Made by a program: the position numbers and the translations under genes
In this document: piece after piece, positions 7,919 through 31,805 of the stretch
Layout of the letters: each line of letters begins with the position of its first letter
Position numbering within the stretch: the first letter of the stretch is position 1
The notes under the pieces: generated by a model
The model's input: only the letters and a program-made list of their open reading frames with translations
What the model was told of the DNA's origin: nothing
Databases searched by the model: none
Origin: Wolbachia endosymbiont of Dirofilaria (Dirofilaria) immitis
GTDB taxonomy: Bacteria; Pseudomonadota; Alphaproteobacteria; Rickettsiales; Anaplasmataceae
Direction of reading: 5' to 3'
Assembly (NCBI RefSeq): GCF_013365455.1
Contig: NZ_CP046578.1
Span: 840,001 to 872,000 of the forward strand
DNA length: 32,000 nucleotides

Positions 7919-9193
7919 TTATGAAGAAACTTTACGATACCAAAACAAGTAAAGAGGTGTACCGCTTACAGTAAATAAGCTTGAGATTAGCAAGGTATTA
8001 ATAGGAGTTTCACATATTATCCAGCAGCAAAAGGTTGTTGCTATAACACCAACTAAAAGCTTGCAATAATTCCTTTCTTCTATAATAACCTTTAAAAAAG
8101 CAAGGCTGCACGTAAGGTAAATAAGTAAAAAGGAAATTACAGAAAAATCAATAATTGATGTAATTTGCTTAGCAAAATTATTACTTGAAGTGAGAATTAA
8201 CAAAATTGCAGTTCCAATTGAGCTTGTTACTATTCCCAAAAAAGGAGAACCATGCTTATTTCTTTTCGCAAAGAATTGTGGCATAAGTTTATCTTCCGCA
8301 AGACCAAAAGCAACTTGTCCACTAGATAAAACCCATGAGTTTAAACTGCCAACACAGAAGATAAATGCAATTATAGAAATAATCAAATGCCAACTACCAG
8401 AAAACATAACCCTTATCGCATCAACATATGGTGCTTTTGAATTCGCCAAATCGTTGCCATTAATTAGTCCCATAATTGTAAAACTATTAATAAAATATAT
8501 AATAGCAACACAGATTGTACCAAGTACTACAGCTTTTGGTATAGTTTTAGCTGGATCATTTATTGACCCTGCAGGTGCTGTTGCCAATTCAACTCCAACA
8601 AAACACCATACAGTCAGGAGTGTAGAACGTGCAAGAATTTGTGATATTGTAAGATTTGAGATTTTTTCACTTATAATAAAGTTGTTTCTATCAAAAAAAC
8701 ACAATGCCACCATAGGTATTGCAAGTAACACAGAAACTTTTATAACTGTGAGTAGGAGCTCAACACGTCCAGCAGCAGCTATTTCTCTTAAATTTATTAA
8801 CGTAATAACTGTAAGCAATAGTAACCCTAAAAGTAACCGCACACTTTGAACGTCTTCATAAAAAAATGGCGTAAGATAACCAACACCTACAATTACTAGA
8901 GCTGTTGTACTAACCCAGGAAATTACCCAATAAGTCCAACCAACAAAAAAGGCCACTGTAGAACCAAAAGCATATTTTGTATAAATATGAGGGCCTCCGG
9001 TTTCTGGAAACTTTGCACATAGTGTAGCGAACACTAAAGAAAGAGACACAGCACCAGTCCCTGATATTATCCAACTTATTAGGCTATAAATACCATATGG
9101 TGCAATGCTAACTGGAAGCATAAAAATCCCAGAGCCAATCTGGCTACTGATAACTAAAGCAAAAACTGTTAAGAAACCTATTTTATTTGACAC
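7919..9193 (-). CDS. APC-superfamily permease, basic amino acid/polyamine antiporter (APA, PotE/AdiC-like) family, paralog 1
   Basis: 424 aa with about 12 hydrophobic segments and the TM1 motif SSQIGSGIFMLP typical of APA antiporters. Starts at GTG 9193; there is no in-frame ATG near the N-terminus. Confidence 0.9.
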   Translation of the reverse strand: MSNKIGFLTVFALVISSQIGSGIFMLPVSIAPYGIYSLISWIISGTGAVSLSLVFATLCAKFPETGGPHIYTKYAFGSTVAFFVGWTYWVISWVSTTALVIVGVGYLTPFFYEDVQSVRLLLGLLLLTVITLINLREIAAAGRVELLLTVIKVSVLLAIPMVALCFFDRNNFIISEKISNLTISQILARSTLLTVWCFVGVELATAPAGSINDPAKTIPKAVVLGTICVAIIYFINSFTIMGLINGNDLANSKAPYVDAIRVMFSGSWHLIISIIAFIFCVGSLNSWVLSSGQVAFGLAEDKLMPQFFAKRNKHGSPFLGIVTSSIGTAILLILTSSNNFAKQITSIIDFSVISFLLIYLTCSLAFLKVIIEERNYCKLLVGVIATTFCCWIICETPINTLLISSLFTVSGTPLYLFWYRKVSS

Positions 9194-9291: not shown

Positions 9292-10566
9292 TCACCTTAT
9301 AGATTTGCGGTACCAAAGCAGATAAATAGGTGTTACGCTCAGGGGAAAGAGACTTGACATCAATAATGTCCTGATAGGAATCTCATATATTATCCAGCAA
9401 CAAAAAAGTATAGCCACGCCTCCAATCAGTAACTTGCAATATATCTTTTCTTGCATAGCAATCTTAAGAAAGGCAAAACTAGATACTAAGTAGATAAATA
9501 AGAATGAAACCACAGAGACATCAATTATTAAAGTTACTTGCTCAACAAAATTTTTGTTTGACGTTAGAACAAGCAAAACTATTACTCCTAAAGTACTTAG
9601 CATTATTCCATAAAAAGGAGCATCGTACTTATTTCTTCTAGTAAAAAGCCTTGGCATTAACTTGTCCTCTGCAAGACCTAAAGCAATTTGTCCATCAGCC
9701 AAGAACCAAGTATTTAAGTTACTTACAGAAACAATAAAAGCAACAACAGAAACGATTACATGCCAATTACCTTGAAACATAATTTTCACTGCATCAGCAT
9801 ATGGTGCCCTTGAATCAGCTAGGTCATTACCGCTTATTAATCCCATAATTGCAAAATTGTTAATAAAATATATAACAGCAACACAGATTGTACCAAGTAC
9901 TATGGCTCTTGGTATTGTCTTACCTGGATTATTAACAGATCCTGCAGATGCTGTTACTGATTCAAGTCCAACGAAACACCATAGAGCAAGAAGTGTAGAG
10001 TGAGCAAGAATCTGCGATGTTGTAAAGCTTGACAGTTCCTCACTTATAATAAAGTTATTTCTATCAAAAAAAAACAAAGCCGCCATAGGTATTGTAAGTA
10101 GTGCAATTATTTTAATAATAGTTAATAGAAGTTCAACACGTCCAGCAGTAGTCACCCCTCTTAAATTTATTAGCATAATAGCTAAAATCAATACCACTTC
10201 TAAAAGCAAACGTATATTTTGCATATCACTATAAAAAAGAGGAGCTAGATAACCAATACTTGCAATTGTTACAGCTGTTGAACTAACCCACGAGCTTATC
10301 CAATAAGTCCAACCAATAAAGAAAGCCACTGTAGAGCCAAAGGCATATTTTACGTAAACGTGAGGACCTCCAGTTTTTGGAAACTTTGCACAGAGAAAAG
10401 CAAAAACTAAAGCAAAAAATATAGCACCAAGCCCCGATATCATCCAGCTCATAGGACTATATATGCCATATGGAGCAAGACTAATTGGAAGCATGAAAAT
10501 TCCAGAGCCAATTTGACTACTAATAACTAAGGCAAAAACAGTCAAAAACCCTATTTTATCTGACAC
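9292..10566 (-). CDS. APC-superfamily permease, APA (PotE/AdiC-like) family, paralog 2
   Basis: Aligns without gaps to paralog 1 along its whole length. GTG at 10566 (VSDKIGFL) is homologous to the GTG start of paralog 1. The ORF track extends to TTG 10587. Confidence 0.88.
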   Translation of the reverse strand: MSDKIGFLTVFALVISSQIGSGIFMLPISLAPYGIYSPMSWMISGLGAIFFALVFAFLCAKFPKTGGPHVYVKYAFGSTVAFFIGWTYWISSWVSSTAVTIASIGYLAPLFYSDMQNIRLLLEVVLILAIMLINLRGVTTAGRVELLLTIIKIIALLTIPMAALFFFDRNNFIISEELSSFTTSQILAHSTLLALWCFVGLESVTASAGSVNNPGKTIPRAIVLGTICVAVIYFINNFAIMGLISGNDLADSRAPYADAVKIMFQGNWHVIVSVVAFIVSVSNLNTWFLADGQIALGLAEDKLMPRLFTRRNKYDAPFYGIMLSTLGVIVLLVLTSNKNFVEQVTLIIDVSVVSFLFIYLVSSFAFLKIAMQEKIYCKLLIGGVAILFCCWIIYEIPIRTLLMSSLFPLSVTPIYLLWYRKSIR

Positions 10567-10944
10567 AACGTTTTCTGGTTTTAGCAAACAGATTAATAAT
10601 TATTCTTGCCGCTCATGCAAGGTATTCTGTTCCTCAGTAGCTAATTTGTGTTATAGCGGCAAATTTTACTCACTAACAGTAGAGATATTTAGAAAACTTA
10701 AAACCTATCTACAGTCTTTTCCATAAAAGAATTAACCTCAACAAAAAAATATATTTACAAGTAGTGTGAAGATGCATACTTAATTTCATCTTGCATGCAG
10801 TACACTTTTCTAAGTCTTTTTTATAAATGAAATTTCATGCCTAGATTTCAGACACCTAACTTTTTCTCTTCAGCCAAGAGCTCTGACTGTCAATAATTCT
10901 TACATTTATCTTAGTAATCAGAGTTTAGTTAAATAAGATATACT

Positions 10945-11878
10945 TCATACTAAATCTAATATTTTAAACCTAACATTTTCAGTAATACCACCTGGCATAA
11001 CTGAAACCTTCACACCCTTGTTTATTCTCAAGTAGTTTATTAATTCATCAACTAATATATTAGGAGCAGAACCACCTGCAGTAATCCCTAACTTTTCTAT
11101 GCCCTGTAACCAACTCCTATTCACATAGTTATAGTTATCAATTAAATAAGCCCTTCTTCCTCTTGCAGTACACAGATCTAATAAGCGGTTTGAGTTCGCA
11201 CTATTTTTGCTTCCTACAATTAATACTATGTCTACAAACTCAGCTAGTTTTTTTGATAGCACTCTGCCTATTTTGTGTTGCATAGCATATATCTTTTAAA
11301 TTAGGACCTATAATGTTTGGAAATCTAAGCTTTAGGGCAGTAATAATTTTGCCAGTATCATCAACGCTTAGAGTGGTTTGTGTGATATAAGATAAATTAT
11401 CTGGATCTTTAACTTTTAAATCGTATACATCTTCTACAGTTTGTACTAAAGCAATAGGATTATCTACTCTTCCTCTAATTCCCTTAACCTCTGGATGAGT
11501 TTCATTCCCAATTAGAATTAATTCTTTACCATTATCCTCATATCCTTTTGCTTCTTTATGCACTTTGCTAACTAGAGGACATGTTGCATCAACCACTTGG
11601 ATACCCTTCCTTTTTACTTCCTCTTCTATATTTTTTGACACTCCATCTGCACTAAAAACTAATATCCCACCATTATCTTTAATATCCTTAATACTGCTTA
11701 CAAAAATCATTCCTTGTCTTTTAAAATCCTCTACCACATATGTTATTGTGAACAATCTCATGTAGTACATAAACTCGACGATTACCTTTGTATTTTTCTA
11801 AAGCAATAGCCCCAACATAGCCATTGCTCTTTTGACTCCCGCACAAAGCCCGCGTGGTTCAGTTAAAATAATTTCCAT
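10945..11878 (-). pseudogene. ispH: 4-hydroxy-3-methylbut-2-enyl diphosphate reductase (IspH/LytB), split into 4 frame segments by three 1-nt indels
   Basis: The ATG at 11878 gives MEIILTEPRGLCAGVKRAMAMLG, then a frame change at the GGGG run 11810-11813 (stop at 11798-11800). [22 protein letters not shown] follows, then a frame change near 11742. ORF 11240..11770 then reads [10 protein letters not shown]...DATCPLV...[14 protein letters not shown], with a frame change in the A7 run (11248-11254). ORF 10945..11283 completes it ([22 protein letters not shown]...GITAGGSAP). Total length is 934 nt, which is 3n+1. Confidence 0.85.
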
Positions 11879-18292: not shown

Positions 18293-18407
18293 GATAACTT
18301 AAGCTAAGATAGCTCATTCTATCTAAATGAATAGATAAAAATCAATCTTTATGCAATTACCTTTTAACTACTAGTTAAACTAATCACCATATAATTCATC
18401 AGTGTAC

Positions 18408-18443
18408 AAAAAAATCGGTCAGATTAGCTCTAATCTGACCGAT
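18408..18443 (-). terminator. Strong Rho-independent terminator (minus strand)
   Basis: Stem TCGGTCAGATTA / TAATCTGACCGA (18415-18426 / 18431-18442, 12 perfect bp plus an A14:T43 pair) with a GCTC loop. On the minus strand it is followed by T7 (18408-18414). Confidence 0.6.
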
Positions 18444-19299
18444 AGCTCTAATAGTGAGGTAAGCTTCACTATAACATGTTCATTCTATAGTACTACATCC
18501 GTACACAATTTATTTTAAATTTATACACAAGCATTAGTAAATTATTTACTTCTTAAAAACAAAGTTTAGCATTGCTTTTTTTATAGCAGTACAAAGTTAA
18601 CTGTTCTCTCAGCTTTACGCTATCATATTAAAATGGTTATTGTAATACAAAGTTACTAATAATATATATATAGAATAATAGGTAAAGTACTGAGAAAATA
18701 GCAGTATAACAATTGTAATCTCACACTAGCTAGAGTGAAGAAAACTCTAAAAAGGGAGTTGAGTAACAGAAATTAAACTATAAGATCTTCTGAAAACTGT
18801 ACAGTATATGTTAACATTCCTTTGTGTTACATTCTAAGGAATTGCACAGAATGTTGTTACGTTTCCTTATATTTTACCTTCAGCCATAATAACTATGGTA
18901 ACAAAATTACATTTATCTAGCATACTTAAATACCCTATCGTGTAAATACTTTTTACCATAGTATTCCCTAAAACACTGTTTACACAGTCTGCACTATCAA
19001 CACCAAAAAGCTTTTTACATATTCCTAGATCTTTAACTGCACAGTGTTACATAAGCTTAAATTTATCACCGCCATCTTCACAAAAAGAAAATTTCCTTTT
19101 TTATTCACTACTACAGTTATAAGTCTATTACTTCTTTATCTTTTACTCAAAACTTACTACTACCTTTGCTTATGAAATATTATTCCTTTGAAAGGATAAG
19201 TAGTAAACAATATATTATAAAACTACCTAATAAAAAGAGTCACTATAATATTAATTATATTAATATTATACATTATAGAATAACTAATGTAAAATAGAT
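18444..19299 (-). pseudogene. Probable decayed 3' portion (NAD-binding/Fe-S half of the FNR/PyrK-like module) of the upstream oxidoreductase gene
   Basis: The 971-aa ORF stops 7 codons after the GPTG motif that ends an FNR-like FAD barrel. The same frame continues through many stops as ...LFLLGSFIIYCLLLILSKE*YFISKGSSKF*VKDKEVIDL..., and another frame holds the open fragment HCAVKDLGICKKLFGVDSADCVNSVLGNTMVKSIYTIGYLSMLDKCNFVTIVIMAEGKI. The region ends at the 18408-18443 terminator. The identification is weak. Confidence 0.35.
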
Positions 19300-22215
19300 C
19301 TAATAAACTTCAGTAGGACACCCAGTTGGACCCATAAGAACTATCTGCTCACCTTCTTTAAGGAATTTACATAAATTAGTAGAACCACCGGTTTCAAGCA
19401 CAATCGTAGAAATAATTCCTTTTTTTCTATCTACTTCGGCGCCAGTTACAGCTATACTTTCCATAGCAAGGTCAGCCTTTTTACTATTGGTCTCAAAGTT
19501 TTGTAACTTAAAGAATTGTCCAGGCTGAAAATTTTTTGCAGCAAGAGGTGCTTTAATCATTATCTCTACCACCCTATCAGTTAAATACTGAATTTTTATG
19601 ACCCTTGCAGTAAATTGCTCTCTAATCTTATTAAAAAACTCTTCACGATATCGGTCTCCAAATCTTTCTTGAATCCCAGTACCAGCTACTTGAATAATAC
19701 TACGCTCGGTAGGAGTTCCCCCTATATTACAACATCCATGCAATTGTGTACTTAACGCTGAAACCTGCATTGGAGCAACATCAACTCCACTCAAAAGCTG
19801 AGAAATGATAGGATAGCCGTTTTTAACACTTGCCATGGCTTTTACAACACTGCCTCTATACGAAGGGTGAAGATCACCAAAGAAACTAATCGTTCTACCA
19901 CCTTGTTTATACACTAATATTCTATCCTTATCTTGCATCTTAGGAGAAAATATCTGACTTACTTCTTTCCCTAATGAGTTTAGGTGAGTAAAATACCCAT
20001 TACTTAATTTAAATTTTTTTTCATCCTCTGTTGCAACAATTATATTTGGTTCAGTACCTACTGCTATAAAGACAGAGCGCGCTTTTATATGTTTTACTTC
20101 TCCAGATTTCGTATTTTTTAGTTTTATCGACTCAGCATGGTTATATTTATCCGTTACAATTTCAACTGGCTCCAGATTCTCAATAAAGTAAACTCCTTCC
20201 AATAATGCATTTCGTACCTCCTCACTATTCAGTCGATAACTTGGTGAATCTTCCAGATGTTTTCTATATATAACTTTCACTCCCCCAAAGCTCTGTATTA
20301 ACTCCAATATTTTTGCTTCCCTATTCTCTTTTTTTGCTAACTCTTGTTCTTCTCGAATCAGTTGTGCATGTGATATGAACTCATCTGCAATTTCATATTC
20401 CTCTTCCGTCCAATCTTTTTCAATGTAGTTTTTTCCATATCTAGCAACTAACGTTTCATAGCGAAGAAGAAATTTTTCTATTTGAACCGGATAATATGAT
20501 AAAGCTTCAGTGGCAGTATCAATTGCAGTGAGTCCTGCACCTATAACAACTATTGGCATACGAACTTGTAGATTTGCTACGGAACCAAATTTAAGAGCAC
20601 CAGTAAGCTGTAATGACATCAGAAAATCTGATGCCATACGCACTCCGCGAGCTAACACATTTTTTACTTTGATCATTTTTGGCTTGCCAGAGCCAAGAGC
20701 TAGGGCAATGTGATTAAACCCTAAATTGAATGCATCACTAACAGTTACTGTACCACCAAAGCGAATACCTCCATAAAGAGCAAAATTCTTACGTCTTTCC
20801 AGCAATAATCTGATAACCTTCAAGTAATTCTTATCCCATCTGGAAGTAATGCCATATTCTGCTACTCCACCGAACCCACTGGCAGAACGCTCACTTAACT
20901 TTTCATGTTTAAAATCTTTAATTGGCTGAAAACTGTCCATCAAAGGTTCGATCTTCAATCCATCGATAGCAATAACGTTATGCCCATCATTTAATAAATG
21001 ATAAGCTAAACTAAATCCTGCAGGGCCAAGACCTACAACTAGAATATTTTTGCCAGTGTCTTCTTTCGGTAGTGGCCGCTGAAAATTTAAGGGATTCCAA
21101 CGACTAAGTAGAGAATATATTTCAAAGCCGAATGTTAAACTAAGCACATCATCCAAAATTTTTGTTTCAATCATTGGCACGTTCACAGGCTCTTGTTTTT
21201 GATATATACAAGAATTTGTACAGTCATTGCATATTCTGTATCCAGTAGCTGCACATAGTGGATTGTCTATCATTATAATTGCAAGACTAGCTATACTGTA
21301 CCCTCCACTTTTTACCAGATTCATCTCCGATATTTTCTGCTCTAGTGGACAGCCATGAAGTTCAACTTTAAGTGGAGAAATTTTGAAGGTCATATCATCA
21401 TCCATTAACCCTTTCGAACAGCTATCCTTATCCTGTTTATGACAAAGTATGCAATAGTGAGCGTTATCTAATCCTTCATCCAAACTTACTTTTTCACTTG
21501 TTAAATCAAAACCATATCGTCTTTTTATTTCTTTTGAATATATCACCTCAACTTCTTCTACTTTTTTCCTAGAGAATGACACGAGATTTCTGTAGTCAAC
21601 TCTTCTATGAACACTAAAGAGTATACTCTGTTTACTCTTTACTCTCCATGCTGCATACTGAGCTGCAAGCTCTATTTCTTCTTCATGACTTCCTCTATCC
21701 TCTAACCAGTGCATCACCTGCTCAGCAAAGTTTTTTTCTGTTACTGGTAAAGTAAAAAAATGATTTAGTCTACTAGTAACACAATCGATGTCAATATTTG
21801 CTATATCAGCATACTTCTTCAATGCATAGCGCTGAACAAATAATCTTTTACATTTATATATTACAGCAAAGTCATCATGTTTTCTTTTTAGCTCTTCTAC
21901 TTCTCTCTCAATACTAAAAAGCTTTGTGATAAACTCATCAAGCAAATATGAAAGGTCTATAATCAATTGACTACCCGTCACTTGAATAGTTGATACTGGT
22001 TGTTCCCTAGATCTTAGGGTCAAGCATTGAGATAACGCCAAAGAAGCAGATATTTTTTTTCTCGCTTCAATCAACGAACAAAATAAATTTTCATTGCATA
22101 ATTTAATGTAATCCAAAAATACTTCATCTAATTTTATTAATCCATCGCGAGTATATAGATCTGAAAACGAGATGTTAAAATTTAGCTGCATTATCATATC
22201 ATACAATGCATACAC
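19300..22215 (-). CDS. Large multidomain Fe-S flavoprotein: unknown N-terminal region + Cys clusters + GltD/glutamate-synthase-beta-like pyridine-nucleotide oxidoreductase + truncated FNR/PyrK-like FAD barrel
   Basis: Cys-rich segments are CILCHKQDKDSCSKG, HGCPLEQKI and CNDCTNSCIY. The dinucleotide fold is NILVVGLGPAGFSLAYHLLNDGHNVIAIDG, with a second Rossmann fold IVVIGAGLTAIDTA. The C-terminal barrel is VVEIMIKAPLAAKNFQPGQFFKLQ...GEQIVLMGPTG. The ORF-track start is GTG 22215; ATGs at 22197 and 22191 are alternatives. Confidence 0.85.
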   Translation of the reverse strand: MYALYDMIMQLNFNISFSDLYTRDGLIKLDEVFLDYIKLCNENLFCSLIEARKKISASLALSQCLTLRSREQPVSTIQVTGSQLIIDLSYLLDEFITKLFSIEREVEELKRKHDDFAVIYKCKRLFVQRYALKKYADIANIDIDCVTSRLNHFFTLPVTEKNFAEQVMHWLEDRGSHEEEIELAAQYAAWRVKSKQSILFSVHRRVDYRNLVSFSRKKVEEVEVIYSKEIKRRYGFDLTSEKVSLDEGLDNAHYCILCHKQDKDSCSKGLMDDDMTFKISPLKVELHGCPLEQKISEMNLVKSGGYSIASLAIIMIDNPLCAATGYRICNDCTNSCIYQKQEPVNVPMIETKILDDVLSLTFGFEIYSLLSRWNPLNFQRPLPKEDTGKNILVVGLGPAGFSLAYHLLNDGHNVIAIDGLKIEPLMDSFQPIKDFKHEKLSERSASGFGGVAEYGITSRWDKNYLKVIRLLLERRKNFALYGGIRFGGTVTVSDAFNLGFNHIALALGSGKPKMIKVKNVLARGVRMASDFLMSLQLTGALKFGSVANLQVRMPIVVIGAGLTAIDTATEALSYYPVQIEKFLLRYETLVARYGKNYIEKDWTEEEYEIADEFISHAQLIREEQELAKKENREAKILELIQSFGGVKVIYRKHLEDSPSYRLNSEEVRNALLEGVYFIENLEPVEIVTDKYNHAESIKLKNTKSGEVKHIKARSVFIAVGTEPNIIVATEDEKKFKLSNGYFTHLNSLGKEVSQIFSPKMQDKDRILVYKQGGRTISFFGDLHPSYRGSVVKAMASVKNGYPIISQLLSGVDVAPMQVSALSTQLHGCCNIGGTPTERSIIQVAGTGIQERFGDRYREEFFNKIREQFTARVIKIQYLTDRVVEIMIKAPLAAKNFQPGQFFKLQNFETNSKKADLAMESIAVTGAEVDRKKGIISTIVLETGGSTNLCKFLKEGEQIVLMGPTGCPTEVY

Positions 22216-27461: not shown

Positions 27462-27734
27462 TTACCCATTTATCAAGTCAGACAATTTTTTACTACCACG
27501 AAAACAAGCTTTAAAGTACTGATCTTTTGTAAACTTCTGTAGTATTAAATGGTCTGTTTTTTTAATTTCTCCTAATTGAAAAAGAGCCAAATCCTCTAAT
27601 TTCAATTCTATTATGGCACTTCAATGCACTTGAAAGTACCTCAAAAAAACTATTAACCGTAGCTTCTATAACTACCTTATCAGGAGAGGACATCTCTTTG
27701 CCATTTTTGTTATTAGATCAGATTTCGTTGCCAT
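27462..27734 (-). pseudogene. ihfB: Integration host factor beta subunit relic (two frameshifts plus internal stop)
   Basis: The ATG at 27734, 22 nt after the rpsA stop, gives MATKSDLITKMAKRCPLL, then a frame change near 27675-27686. DKVVIEATVNSFFEVLSSALKCHNRIEIRGFGSFSIRRN follows, then TAA (27562-27564), then KNRPFNTTEVYKRSV, then a frame change near 27511-27520, then YFKA...KKLSDLING and a stop at 27462-27464. Total length is 273 nt (91 codons), the size of IHF-beta. Confidence 0.8.
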
Positions 27735-27756: not shown

Positions 27757-29409
27757 TCACTTAGCGGATAGTATTATATTGTATACTTCAACATCTAATA
27801 CTTCCACTTCTATTTTCTCTGATATAGAAAACTTTTTATTTTCTGGTAAATGCTTTTGATCTATTAAAAGAGCTAAACCATTTTCAACTTCAACAACTAA
27901 TCCGCTATCTTCCCTCTTGCTTACAATAGCCTGCATTTTATTACCTACCTTCACTTTCTTTATTAGTTCTATAAGAGGATCATACTCTATTTGCTTTATA
28001 CCAAGATAAATTCTTGCTCGATCTACATTAGCCCTTATTACTTTTGCTTCTATTATATCACCAACATTATACTTTTTTATTTGATCTAACCCATTCTTAG
28101 ACCAACTTATATCTTGTGCATAAACTGTCCCTTCTATATTCCCATCTATTTCATAATCATCAAAGGTAACAGATATATACAAGCCAGTATTGTTTTTAAT
28201 CTTACCAGAAACAATAGAACCAGGAGGATATTTATCAATAAATACTTGCCAAGGGTTATTTACACACCTTTTCATGCTCAAACTCATTCTATTCTTGATC
28301 GTATCAATACTGAGAATCTTGACGGACACTTCCTGTCCTCTGGTTACTAAATTACTAACTGGTAAATTATTCTTAATCCAAGTTATCTCTGATGAGTGCA
28401 CTAAACCTTCAATTCCAGGCTTAAGTTCAACAAATACCCCATAATCTTCTATGCTTGTTACGTGACCTTTATAGACACCATCAATTGGGTATTTTAACTC
28501 TATATCATGCCAAGGGTTATCCTCCAGTTGTTTTATACCTAGAGAAACTTTTGCATTTTCTTTATCTATTTTTATAACTTTGACTTTTATACTCTGACCA
28601 CAAGTAAAAACTGCAGATGGATGGCTCACTCTACTCCAAGAGATATCTGTAATATGCAATAATCCATCTACAACCCCTACTACATCTGATTCATGAATAC
28701 CAACAAATACACCATAATGAGTAATACTTTTTATTTTTCCTTCTATTATATCACCTTCATTTAGAGATTCTAAAAATTTAATTTTTTCACCAGCATGCAA
28801 TTTCTCTAATACCAGCTTCCTTGATACTACAATATTACCCTGTTTCCTATCTACTTTAAGTACAATGAACTTTTGCTCAGCATCAATAAGATGCTTAACA
28901 TCTTTTATTTGTTTCAAATCCACATGGCTCAGCGGTAAAAAAGCACTTATTCCATCACCAAGATCAACAATAAAGCCACACTTAATTGAACGTTTAATAA
29001 TTCCACTCACCTCAGTTTGCGTAGCCGCATCCTCTTCTAATTTATGCCACTTCTCATCTCTAATCGCTTTTTCACGGCTGAGAGCTACATTACCATGATA
29101 GTCTTCAATTCTTTCCACATACACCCTAATTTTAGAACCAACAGCAATCTCATCATTACAACCGAGTTCTTTGATTGGAATCCTACCGTCAGACTTTAAG
29201 CCGACATCGACTACTATGTCGTTAGGATTTATTCGTGTAATTATACCTTCTACTATATCTCCTTCTTTAATTTTCTTGATGAAAGAATCTTCAAATAAAA
29301 TGTTACCTTGATCTTCAAACTGATCTTGATATACCTCTTCTATGAACCTGTTTGACGATAGTCTTTTAATACTAATCGGCAAATTTATAGCTAGATCACT
29401 ACTACTCAT
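27757..29409 (-). CDS. rpsA: 30S ribosomal protein S1
   Basis: 550 aa made of repeated S1 OB-fold motifs (GDIVEGIITRI..., GFIVDLGDGISAFLP, YGVFVGI..., YGVFVELKPGIEGLVHSSE...). Confidence 0.97.
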   Translation of the reverse strand: MSSSDLAINLPISIKRLSSNRFIEEVYQDQFEDQGNILFEDSFIKKIKEGDIVEGIITRINPNDIVVDVGLKSDGRIPIKELGCNDEIAVGSKIRVYVERIEDYHGNVALSREKAIRDEKWHKLEEDAATQTEVSGIIKRSIKCGFIVDLGDGISAFLPLSHVDLKQIKDVKHLIDAEQKFIVLKVDRKQGNIVVSRKLVLEKLHAGEKIKFLESLNEGDIIEGKIKSITHYGVFVGIHESDVVGVVDGLLHITDISWSRVSHPSAVFTCGQSIKVKVIKIDKENAKVSLGIKQLEDNPWHDIELKYPIDGVYKGHVTSIEDYGVFVELKPGIEGLVHSSEITWIKNNLPVSNLVTRGQEVSVKILSIDTIKNRMSLSMKRCVNNPWQVFIDKYPPGSIVSGKIKNNTGLYISVTFDDYEIDGNIEGTVYAQDISWSKNGLDQIKKYNVGDIIEAKVIRANVDRARIYLGIKQIEYDPLIELIKKVKVGNKMQAIVSKREDSGLVVEVENGLALLIDQKHLPENKKFSISEKIEVEVLDVEVYNIILSAK

Positions 29410-29650: not shown

Positions 29651-29817
29651 ACAGTTGCTTATGAGCAATAAACTAACTTAGGCTAAGATATAAGAAGTGC
29701 TAAGCCATTGTCAAGAAGCTATATTATAGTATATACATTCCATATGTATAAAAATTTTAGTTTGATCAAAATAGACAAAAGATGTATTGATGTTTGGTAT
29801 AAATTAAAAAATGAAGT

Positions 29818-29890
29818 GATCCCGTAGCTCAGCCGGTAGAGCAACTGACTTTTAATCAGTAGGTCGCGCGTTCGACCCGCGCCGGGATCA
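29818..29890 (+). tRNA. tRNA-Lys (anticodon UUU)
   Basis: GATCCCGTAGCTCAGCCGGTAGAGCAACTGACTTTTAATCAGTAGGTCGCGCGTTCGACCCGCGCCGGGATCA has a perfect 7-bp acceptor stem, anticodon loop CTTTTAA and a TTCGACC T-loop. CCA is not encoded. Confidence 0.97.
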
Positions 29891-29929
29891 TCAAATATGT
29901 TTTATAAGCTTCTTTTATAATGTTCTTAG

Positions 29930-30927
29930 TATAATAGCATATTTAAATTGCCTACAAATATAGCTTTCCACTTCTAACTGTTTACTTTGAAATTCTCACT
30001 TTCTTCCTATAATTTATAATTTTTACCAATTTTCCAAAAAAGTAAGCACCTATTTATAATTTTAAGAAAAGCAAATAAATTCTTGTAACCCTAAAAGGAC
30101 TAACTTCTTAACATAATTGATTTACTAAATTAGCAATATAACTATACGTTATTTTTCCTATGGAATTAATATTTCTTTAGTCATAGTACAGCGAAGATAA
30201 TAGTTAAGACAAAAATCATATAATATAAACAGTTACTAGAAATGTAATATATAACAAGTACTAAAATAGAATGTCAAAGCTGAGAAATTAGACAAGAATA
30301 GACTTAATATAAATTACAAACTCAATAATCAATTTAGTTACTAAATATATCTGTCAAGGATAAGTTACAAGAATAATAAAGTTTTTAATAAAAAAGGAGC
30401 TAATATTAACGATTAAAGAAAGTGATTACTTAGAAACTTTGCTGTAGCTCCCCCATATACTAATCACCAATATCTCCATCAACCTTAGCTCTCGAAGTTA
30501 ACTGCACTAGAACACATCAAATACTTAACAATATGCAAAGCTTGTTCACTAATATCTGGCTTGAAACCACTAAACCATCAGTGTTCACCTCAAGCTTACA
30601 AGTATACATGATATCCAACGCATGCTCTGCATCAATAACAATAAACGCACATAATTCTCCCTTTCTTCTGCAATCACATGCAAAGCAAGAATAGTTTTAC
30701 AGAACTCTCAGAACTGAATACCTCAATTATCATCCCTTTAGCAACCCTTCAATGCTAAGAGCTAAATTAACGCAATCGACCTTGTGAACATCGTGTCTAT
30801 TCCTCTACAAGATTTTGCCTAAATTTCATTATTGAATCACTACCAAACGCTTTTTCAATTTAACTTATTACACATTGTCTAATGCTCTTCGTTTATTATT
30901 ATCTCTTTCCTCTGAGCTGCTTGCCAT
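29930..30927 (-). pseudogene. recA: recA relic, heavily eroded (many frameshifts and stops; 3' boundary approximate)
   Basis: The ATG at 30927 gives MASSSEERDNNKRRALDNV followed by a stop. Frame-hopping recovers IEKAFGSDSIMKF; VAKGMIIEVFSSESSVKLFLL (Walker A relic at 30692-30715); ALHVIAEE; AFIVIDAEHALD (30613-30648); KPDISEQALHIVKYLMCSSAVNF; GGATAKFLSNH; and NFSALTFYFS (about 30250-30280). All occur in RecA order. Confidence 0.85.
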
Positions 30928-31067
30928 GAATCATTTATTAATTATATAACCTTCATATTAATCGAATATTAATAACTTGCCAAGGGTTTTCTAACAACAA
31001 GAAACATTATCATAAAAAATTAGCTACCAAAAATTACATTAAAATAGAAATCAAACAGGCATTTATA

Positions 31068-31805
31068 ATGCGATATAAAATAATAACAGAATACAATGGC
31101 AGTAGCTTCTCTGGTTGGCAGAAACAGCAGCACTCTGCTAACTCAATCCAGGAAACTATAGAAAACGCAATATTTAACTTCAGTGGCGAGAAAACTACTT
31201 TATACTGCGGCGGAAGAACTGATGCAGGAGTTCATGCTTTAGGGCAAGTTGCTCATTTTGATATGGAAAGAGAATTTGAATCCCATAAAATAAGGAATGC
31301 AATAAATTATTACCTAAAATCGATTCCTGTAGTTATCCTTGATGTAGAAATTGTAGATAATGCATTTCACTCGCGATTTTCAGCAAAAAAAAGACATTAT
31401 GAGTACAGAATAATTAATCGCTATGCCCCTACAGCTTTAGAAGCTGGTTATGTGTGGCAAGTGTTTAACCCACTCGATGTAGATATCATGCGTAAGGCCG
31501 CCAAACACTTACTCGGAAAGCATAATCTTTCAAGCTTCCGTTCAAAAAACTGTCAAGCTAAAAACCCGATAAGAACAATCGATGATATTGAGATAACCCA
31601 AAATGGAAACCATATATACATTAAAATATCCGCTATTTCTTTCTTACATAATCAAGTGAGGATTATTGTCGGTACTTTAGTTAAATTCGGGAAAAATAGA
31701 ACTAATCCACAAGAAATGTTAAATATATTAAATCAACATAAAAGAAAGGCTGCTGGAGTTACTGCACCGCCTTGTGGTTTATACTTGGTAAAAATAGATT
31801 ACTAG
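31068..31805 (+). CDS. truA: tRNA pseudouridine(38-40) synthase TruA
   Basis: YNGSSFSGWQKQ..., catalytic GRTDAGVHALGQVAHFD, and FLHNQVRIIVGTL. Length is 245 aa. Confidence 0.95.
   Translation: MRYKIITEYNGSSFSGWQKQQHSANSIQETIENAIFNFSGEKTTLYCGGRTDAGVHALGQVAHFDMEREFESHKIRNAINYYLKSIPVVILDVEIVDNAFHSRFSAKKRHYEYRIINRYAPTALEAGYVWQVFNPLDVDIMRKAAKHLLGKHNLSSFRSKNCQAKNPIRTIDDIEITQNGNHIYIKISAISFLHNQVRIIVGTLVKFGKNRTNPQEMLNILNQHKRKAAGVTAPPCGLYLVKIDY

Follow-up and report, generated by a model that had tools for sequence, protein, structure and literature searches.

The window, by which we mean the whole 32-kb stretch of DNA that was analyzed, carries between a lysine tRNA gene and truA a spacer of 1175 bp with a G+C content of 28% and a longest open reading frame (ORF) of only 53 codons. 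One boundary of the spacer is tRNA-Lys (UUU), located at 29817-29892 on the plus strand by ARAGORN and Rfam. The other is truA (31068-31805, plus strand; NCBIfam TIGR00071, 203 bits), an intact gene for tRNA pseudouridine synthase A and the conserved divergent neighbor of recA across Wolbachia loci. Within the spacer we distinguish a non-coding tRNA-Lys flank that is not derived from recA (29893-30260), an AT-rich stretch at a deletion junction (30261-30424), a recA relic on the minus strand (30425-30927), and a divergent intergenic region of 140 bp (30928-31067). The last of these was delimited by comparison with the loci of relatives, and measures 143 bp in wCtub, the Wolbachia of Cruorifilaria, in which recA is intact. 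The 53-codon ORF lies on the plus strand (30533-30694) and is an antisense shadow that is also present opposite intact recA.

The product of the S1 protein gene rpsA (27757-29409), compared over 550 residues in a protein search, is 100% identical to the annotated S1 of the Wolbachia of Dirofilaria immitis, and its next-best matches are the Wolbachia of Onchocerca gibsoni and O. ochengi at 88-89% identity. Judged by this S1 identity, the organism is the supergroup C Wolbachia wDimm, and its gene order is collinear with that of the Onchocerca symbiont wOo. Many Wolbachia fragments are found in filarial nuclear genomes (PMC12693587), and the window might be taken for an insertion of this kind in which bacterial genes are decaying. 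We give practically no weight to a nuclear origin: nearly all of the large ORFs are uninterrupted (among them rpsA, truA, rseP, ffh, and an ORF of 780 aa that resembles outer-membrane-assembly proteins), the identical S1 is an annotated protein of a 920-kb bacterial contig, and the window carries the GC skew that has been described for wDi and is linked to replication (PMC4703054).

Similarity of the spacer to recA

RecA-derived fragments are spread over three frames of the minus strand, from 30927 down to ~30425. The first, MASSSEERDNNKRRALDNV, begins at the original ATG (30927-30925) and is followed by IEKAFGSDSIMKF (30859-30821), IIEVFSSESS-KT (~30730-30693), AFIVIDAEHALD (30648-30613), PDISEQALHIV..CSSA (30559-30501), and LTSRAKVDGDIGD*YMG, which reaches ~30451. 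A tblastn search of the 32-kb window with E. coli RecA returned one significant locus (30859-30451, two frames, combined E of 2e-9). With a Wolbachia RecA query taken from a related locus, the match ran from 30927 down to 30451 and covered RecA residues 1-171 (E of 6e-16). The sole other match in these searches was a weak one to the P-loop of ffh. Pfam family PF00154 was detected in two raw frames with stops masked (34.6 and 36.6 bits, cut-off 27) and in the frame-corrected relic (112.4 bits, E of 3e-32), the latter over profile positions 1-166 of 262 only. Past residue ~180, neither tblastn nor Pfam gave any protein-level match to RecA.

We also built a DNA alignment of the relic that includes two intact recA genes and, as decayed counterparts, the wOo and WOLB0982 copies. 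Its DNA is 76-78% identical to intact Wolbachia recA from the ATG at 30927 to ~30425-30416. By all of these scores, the similarity of the relic to recA is far beyond chance, and protein and DNA alignments together demonstrate that ~503 bp (30927-30425, minus strand) derive from recA codons 1 to ~180 of 355. We therefore interpret the spacer, with a probability of roughly 95%, as a non-functional, partly deleted recA pseudogene of wDimm in supergroup C.

A first-pass annotation, made by reading the letters without search tools, had placed RecA landmarks over 29930-30927. This reading holds in three frames for 30425-30927 but fails for 29930-30424, which is tRNA-Lys flank or has no match. The “full series” of landmarks that it described overstates what is left, because the relic stops at codon ~180 and the 3' half is gone. 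One of the proposed landmarks, ALTFYFS (30280-30260), lies in the AT-rich stretch 30261-30424, where alignment z-scores do not exceed 1.1 and where neither tblastn nor Pfam gives a signal; as a RecA landmark it is unsupported. RecA similarity itself was upheld by the frame-corrected PF00154 score and by both tblastn searches. A genuine and meaningful pseudogene was in this case recoverable from raw sequence by tool-less reading.

Lesions in the recA relic

Relative to intact genes, the relic contains nine frameshifting indels (+2, -1, -1, -1, -1, -7, -1, -32, and +2 bp) within 503 bp. An in-frame duplication of 6 bp additionally converts AFIDAEH to AFIVIDAEH. Stops in register with the ancestral frame occur at codon 22 (30862) and codon 168 (30462), and a third, at codon 183, sits at the fading 3' edge of the relic alignment. 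The longest relic ORF on the recA strand has 33 codons, where an intact gene needs 355.

The lesions include both nucleotide-binding motifs. Walker A has lost 1 bp between 30701 and 30700, within the codon for the Gly of GKT, and now reads SSESS-KT, with the Lys and Thr codons persisting out of frame; the apparent change of GKT to VKL that was noted at the outset arises from this deletion. The Walker B strand (G-A-I/V-D-V-I-V-V-D-S) is gone through a deletion of 30-32 bp near 30505. The deleted strand is the one on which RecA bears its Walker B aspartate. A catalytic-Glu motif, DAEHALD, can still be read at ~30633-30613. With Walker A frameshifted and Walker B deleted, the ATP-binding core of the relic is destroyed.

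It could be argued that recA is intact in vivo and that its frameshifts were introduced by faulty sequencing or assembly, given that some sequencing platforms tend to misread AT-rich homopolymers. Such errors have a negligible chance of being the explanation here: the nine indels include losses of 7 and 32 bp, nonsense substitutions are present, and the 3' half is wholly absent. The wOo orthologue, moreover, has decayed independently and shares lesions with the window, and recA had been scored as a pseudogene in a previous wDi assembly, produced independently (PMC4224334). The nine frameshifts, the in-register stops, and the loss of the 3' half thus sustain the original view of a recA that is long dead rather than mis-sequenced.

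Loss of the 3' half

A full-length recA needs 1068 bp, and the space from the ATG to tRNA-Lys in the window is 1035 bp. From tRNA-Lys to the recA stop the distance is 0.96 kb in wCtub and 3.3 kb in wOo. Default blastn similarity between the window and wOo runs through both tRNAs to window position 30266 (wOo 5928) and restarts at window position 30425, which corresponds to wOo 9337. Segments of the intervening DNA and of the tRNA-Lys flank were scored by local alignment with dinucleotide-shuffle controls. Against the tRNA-Lys flanks of wOo and wCtub, respectively, 29893-30100 gave z-scores of 25.7 and 10.1, and 30100-30260 gave 12.1 and 7.0. The counterpart of 29893-30260 in wOo spans L002 5556 to ~5920. 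When compared with recA 3' halves, intact or decayed, this same flank reached a z-score of 3.2 at most and never exceeded the best shuffle. The segment 30240-30424 resembled neither the tRNA-Lys flanks (z of 1.1 for wOo and -0.5 for wCtub) nor the recA 3' halves (z of 0.6 at most). A lenient blastn setting stretched the wOo flank to 30353; we rejected this extension, which fails the shuffle control past ~30260.

No remains of the recA 3' half were found in 29893-30424, either at the protein level with tblastn or at the DNA level with shuffle-controlled alignment, and 30261-30424 could hold 3' debris that is no longer recognizable. The 3' half of recA is absent from the wDimm lineage, we infer by deletion, and with it has gone the stretch between the gene and the tRNA-Lys flank, which amounts to ~0.7 kb in wCtub and ~2.8 kb in wOo. 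Absent with the 3' half (residues ~180-355) are the L1 and L2 DNA-binding loops, the GNALKFY region, and the C-terminal domain.

The recA locus in other Wolbachia

With the truA protein as query, 28 loci were collected from genomes that represent species; 23 of these, at 78-91% identity, are Wolbachia or MAGs resembling it. In the sister-genome comparison of the tRNA-Lys to truA interval that the first reading had suggested, an intact 355-aa recA lies there in six other Wolbachia (wCtub, i.e. L008, together with L011, L012, L015, L018, and L022), ~140 bp upstream of truA and divergent from it. One further locus (L016) has recA beside truA with one early stop, and in four the adjacent recA is broken (L001, from WOLB0982; L002, from wOo; L010; and L013). 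The gene order rpsA, tRNA-Ala, tRNA-Lys, recA, truA, dnaN is common to the window, wOo, and wCtub. On the basis of this shared locus and gene order, the relic is the orthologous recA at its ancestral position, and not a stray fragment. Functional RecA of Wolbachia and other Anaplasmataceae (355 aa; wCtub, wMel-type, Ehrlichia) has the same position of the ATG relative to truA and the nucleotide identity given above over codons 1-180; unlike these genes, the window relic is without an ORF, a Walker A frame, Walker B, and the last 175 codons.

Decay of recA at the truA-adjacent locus also extends to other filarial Wolbachia. The copies of wLsig and wLbra (L013 and L010; supergroup D) are broken, and in wDcau, the Wolbachia of Dipetalonema caudispina (supergroup J; L020 8487-9939), ~100 bp of collinear recA DNA traces remain between tRNA-Lys and truA. 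The lesions of these copies differ from those of the window, and they belong to different supergroups and represent separate events. Since these copies are broken and wCtub, the supergroup J sister, has an intact gene, filarial Wolbachia have undergone several independent decays of recA. What is seen at L013, L010, and L020, where recA is broken or almost erased, agrees with Lefoulon et al. (2020), who found that the pattern of recA loss extends to wLsig, wLbra, and wDcau (PMC8116671).

In wOo, ~2.8 kb of ORF-poor DNA (L002 6035-8826) keeps the recA relic apart from the tRNA-Lys flank. The window has no counterpart of this segment, and among the other loci tested only WOLB0982 has one; its contig (L001) starts at wOo 7998 and matches only the last part of the segment. 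The idea that the segment contains the RDD-family membrane gene found 3' of recA in an arthropod Wolbachia was considered and rejected, there being no similarity between the two.

Timing of recA inactivation

The wOo relic is full length (~1030 bp, L002 8826-9857), whereas the copy in the window corresponds to its first ~503 bp. Two lesions recur in all three relics, i.e. those of the window, wOo, and WOLB0982. The first is a nonsense codon at Gln168, where intact genes have CAG, the window TAG, and both wOo and WOLB0982 TAA; the second is a deletion directly after TGTTCT that removes the Walker B strand. In the window this deletion can be aligned either as 32 bp, and is then unique, or as 30+2 bp, of which the 30 are shared. 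Several other lesions, e.g. an inserted base pair and a codon 6 that reads TGA, are common to wOo and WOLB0982 and absent from the window. The wOo pseudogene thus matches that of the window in gene, locus, lineage, and type of decay as well as in these two lesions, and differs from it in its full length and in the 2.8 kb before the tRNA-Lys flank, neither of which the window has. The shared lesions are suggestive of ancestral inactivation; the codon-168 stop could also be a parallel C-to-T change under AT-biased mutation.

Between the window and wOo, the relics are 73.5% identical, compared with 78.5-78.8% at the four-fold degenerate sites of rpsA and truA (genes ~89% identical overall). Relic divergence that is at least as great as that of four-fold degenerate sites implies that both relics have changed at least neutrally fast since the split, which fits ancestral inactivation. 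Under this scenario, recA would have been dead by the time of the last ancestor that the Wolbachia of Dirofilaria and Onchocerca share, the dead gene would then have drifted neutrally, and its 3' half would have been deleted in the Dirofilaria lineage only. An ancestral loss of recA in supergroup C had been inferred by parsimony (Comandatore et al. 2015; PMC4703054). We lean slightly toward the view that the death of recA predates the Dirofilaria-Onchocerca split and that the two relics are a matched pseudogene pair with which rates of neutral substitution and deletion could be calibrated. Since the wDimm-wOo split, more than 1 kb has been lost here in wDimm, and the wOo relic is still full length. 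If true, an ancestral death and a matched pair would refine known biology without amounting to a new phenomenon.

Survival of the 5' half, near the truA promoter region, alongside deletion of the 3' half might be taken to mean that the relic was kept for a function, whether by giving rise to an antisense RNA or a transcribed leader, by regulating truA in cis, or as the source of a short N-terminal peptide; the conserved 140-bp length of the recA-truA intergenic region would suit this as well. The same divergence from wOo, at or beyond that of four-fold degenerate sites, leaves no constraint visible. ORFs on the recA strand of the relic do not exceed 33 codons, Rfam finds only the two tRNAs and nothing over the relic, promoter-like sites are not above shuffles, and terminator-like sites are absent. 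Pseudogenes are, in addition, normally deleted slowly in such genomes. A retained function is for these reasons very improbable, and neutral decay of a dead recA is the reading that we prefer.

Copy number of recA and consequences for the genome

A RecA search of a collection of 5.8 billion proteins recovered wCtub, the Wolbachia of Mansonella and of many arthropods, Ehrlichia, and Anaplasma, among others, down to ~65% identity. None of the best 120 RecA matches bears the name of the Wolbachia of D. immitis or Onchocerca or comes from the 920-kb contig with the identical S1, and the S1 proteins of both are present in the same collection. A protein-collection search of this kind would miss an unannotated second gene. 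These results provide indirect support for the relic as the only recA copy of wDimm. The relic might instead be a dead duplicate, with an intact recA elsewhere sustaining homologous recombination, as our sequence scan covered the 32-kb window. We see only a very slight chance of this, because the relic occupies the recA-truA position that is held by a single intact recA in other Wolbachia, because wDimm is missing from the top RecA matches and yet represented by its S1, and because three papers describe recA as a pseudogene or as lacking in wDi/wDimm and wOo (PMC3514676, PMC4224334, PMC4703054).

The loss of recA in the wDimm lineage, and its link to genome stasis, is already known from work published in 2012-2015. 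Darby et al. (2012) reported that almost all components of homologous recombination, RecA and RecG included, are absent or pseudogenised in wOo (PMC3514676). In Table 1 of Badawi et al. (2014), recA is scored “P” (a pseudogene detectable by BLASTn only) in wOo and wDir, as are recF, recG, recO, recR, and ruvABC, while priA is scored “P” in wDir (PMC4224334). Comandatore et al. (2015) proposed that loss of recA and of IS elements in the supergroup C ancestor stopped rearrangement and let GC skew accumulate (PMC4703054). We did not find the half-gene anatomy of the wDimm relic, or its contrast with the full-length wOo copy, in these published accounts of recA loss; survival of the 5' half only in wDimm, and the possible ancestral lesions shared with wOo, are the small points of anatomy by which the present analysis extends the published record.

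Loss of RecA is rare in bacteria. Without it, and with the other genes of homologous recombination mostly pseudogenised according to the literature, RecA-dependent strand exchange would be impossible in wDimm. Loss of RecA is also the published explanation for stable gene order and strong GC skew in supergroup C, and is accepted as the reason for a gene order that is frozen and for the lack of mobile elements. The genome stasis predicted by the first-pass annotation matches the conclusion of Comandatore et al. (2015), who attributed it to recA loss. In both heartworm disease and onchocerciasis, supergroup C symbionts serve as targets for drugs. Within the window, GC skew is strongly negative, at -0.06 to -0.27 per 2-kb bin from ~2 kb onward, with genes on both strands, and agrees with the replication-linked skew published for wDi (PMC4703054).

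In Buchnera aphidicola and other obligate insect symbionts, RecA loss is likewise tied to genome stasis and strand asymmetry. Buchnera belongs to the unrelated Gammaproteobacteria, and we know of no recognizable recA relic that remains there, whereas the window keeps a legible half-gene. As a precedent, Buchnera is not the sole one, the wDimm lineage itself having been published. The parallel with Buchnera was drawn by Comandatore et al., citing Klasson and Andersson (PMC4703054).

Other duplicated and apparently decayed genes in the window

Two tandem paralogs of APC-family amino-acid/polyamine permeases (7919-9193 and 9292-10587, minus strand) are 67% identical. A matching tandem pair lies beside asd in a Wolbachia of arthropods whose recA is intact (L011 2424-3701 and 3802-5088). 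The proposal that recA loss had frozen the tandem paralogs of the window is made unnecessary by this pair in a recA-proficient Wolbachia, and we rejected it, the copies being just 67% identical. Presence of the pair in recA-intact Wolbachia indicates that the permease duplication is ancient and not a consequence of recA loss.

Just downstream of rpsA lies a dead gene of the HU/IHF family (27462-27734, minus strand), the second gene of DNA transactions to have died here, now in three ORF pieces in different frames, of which a 43-aa piece matches PF00216 (32 bits, cut-off 22.4). The gene is fragmented also in wOo (L002 3136-3391) and wCtub (L008 5398-5565).

The ispH gene (~10945-11876, minus strand) encodes the enzyme that completes the MEP isoprenoid pathway. 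From its sequence it looks disrupted: the ATG at 11876 is followed by a stop 26 codons later, and inspection by eye suggests frame changes around 11850 and 11740 and in a run of seven A (11246-11252). Of the 321 positions of the ispH model, one ORF matches 49-216 and another 214-311.

An ORF of 971 aa similar to glutamate synthase beta/2-polyprenylphenol hydroxylase (19300-22215, minus strand) scores 793 bits, below the NCBIfam cut-off of 1072, with its best stretch covering model positions 1-771 of 1031. It is followed by ~1 kb of ORF-free DNA (18293-19299). The ORF may be C-terminally truncated, or the adjoining ORF-free DNA may hold another relic.
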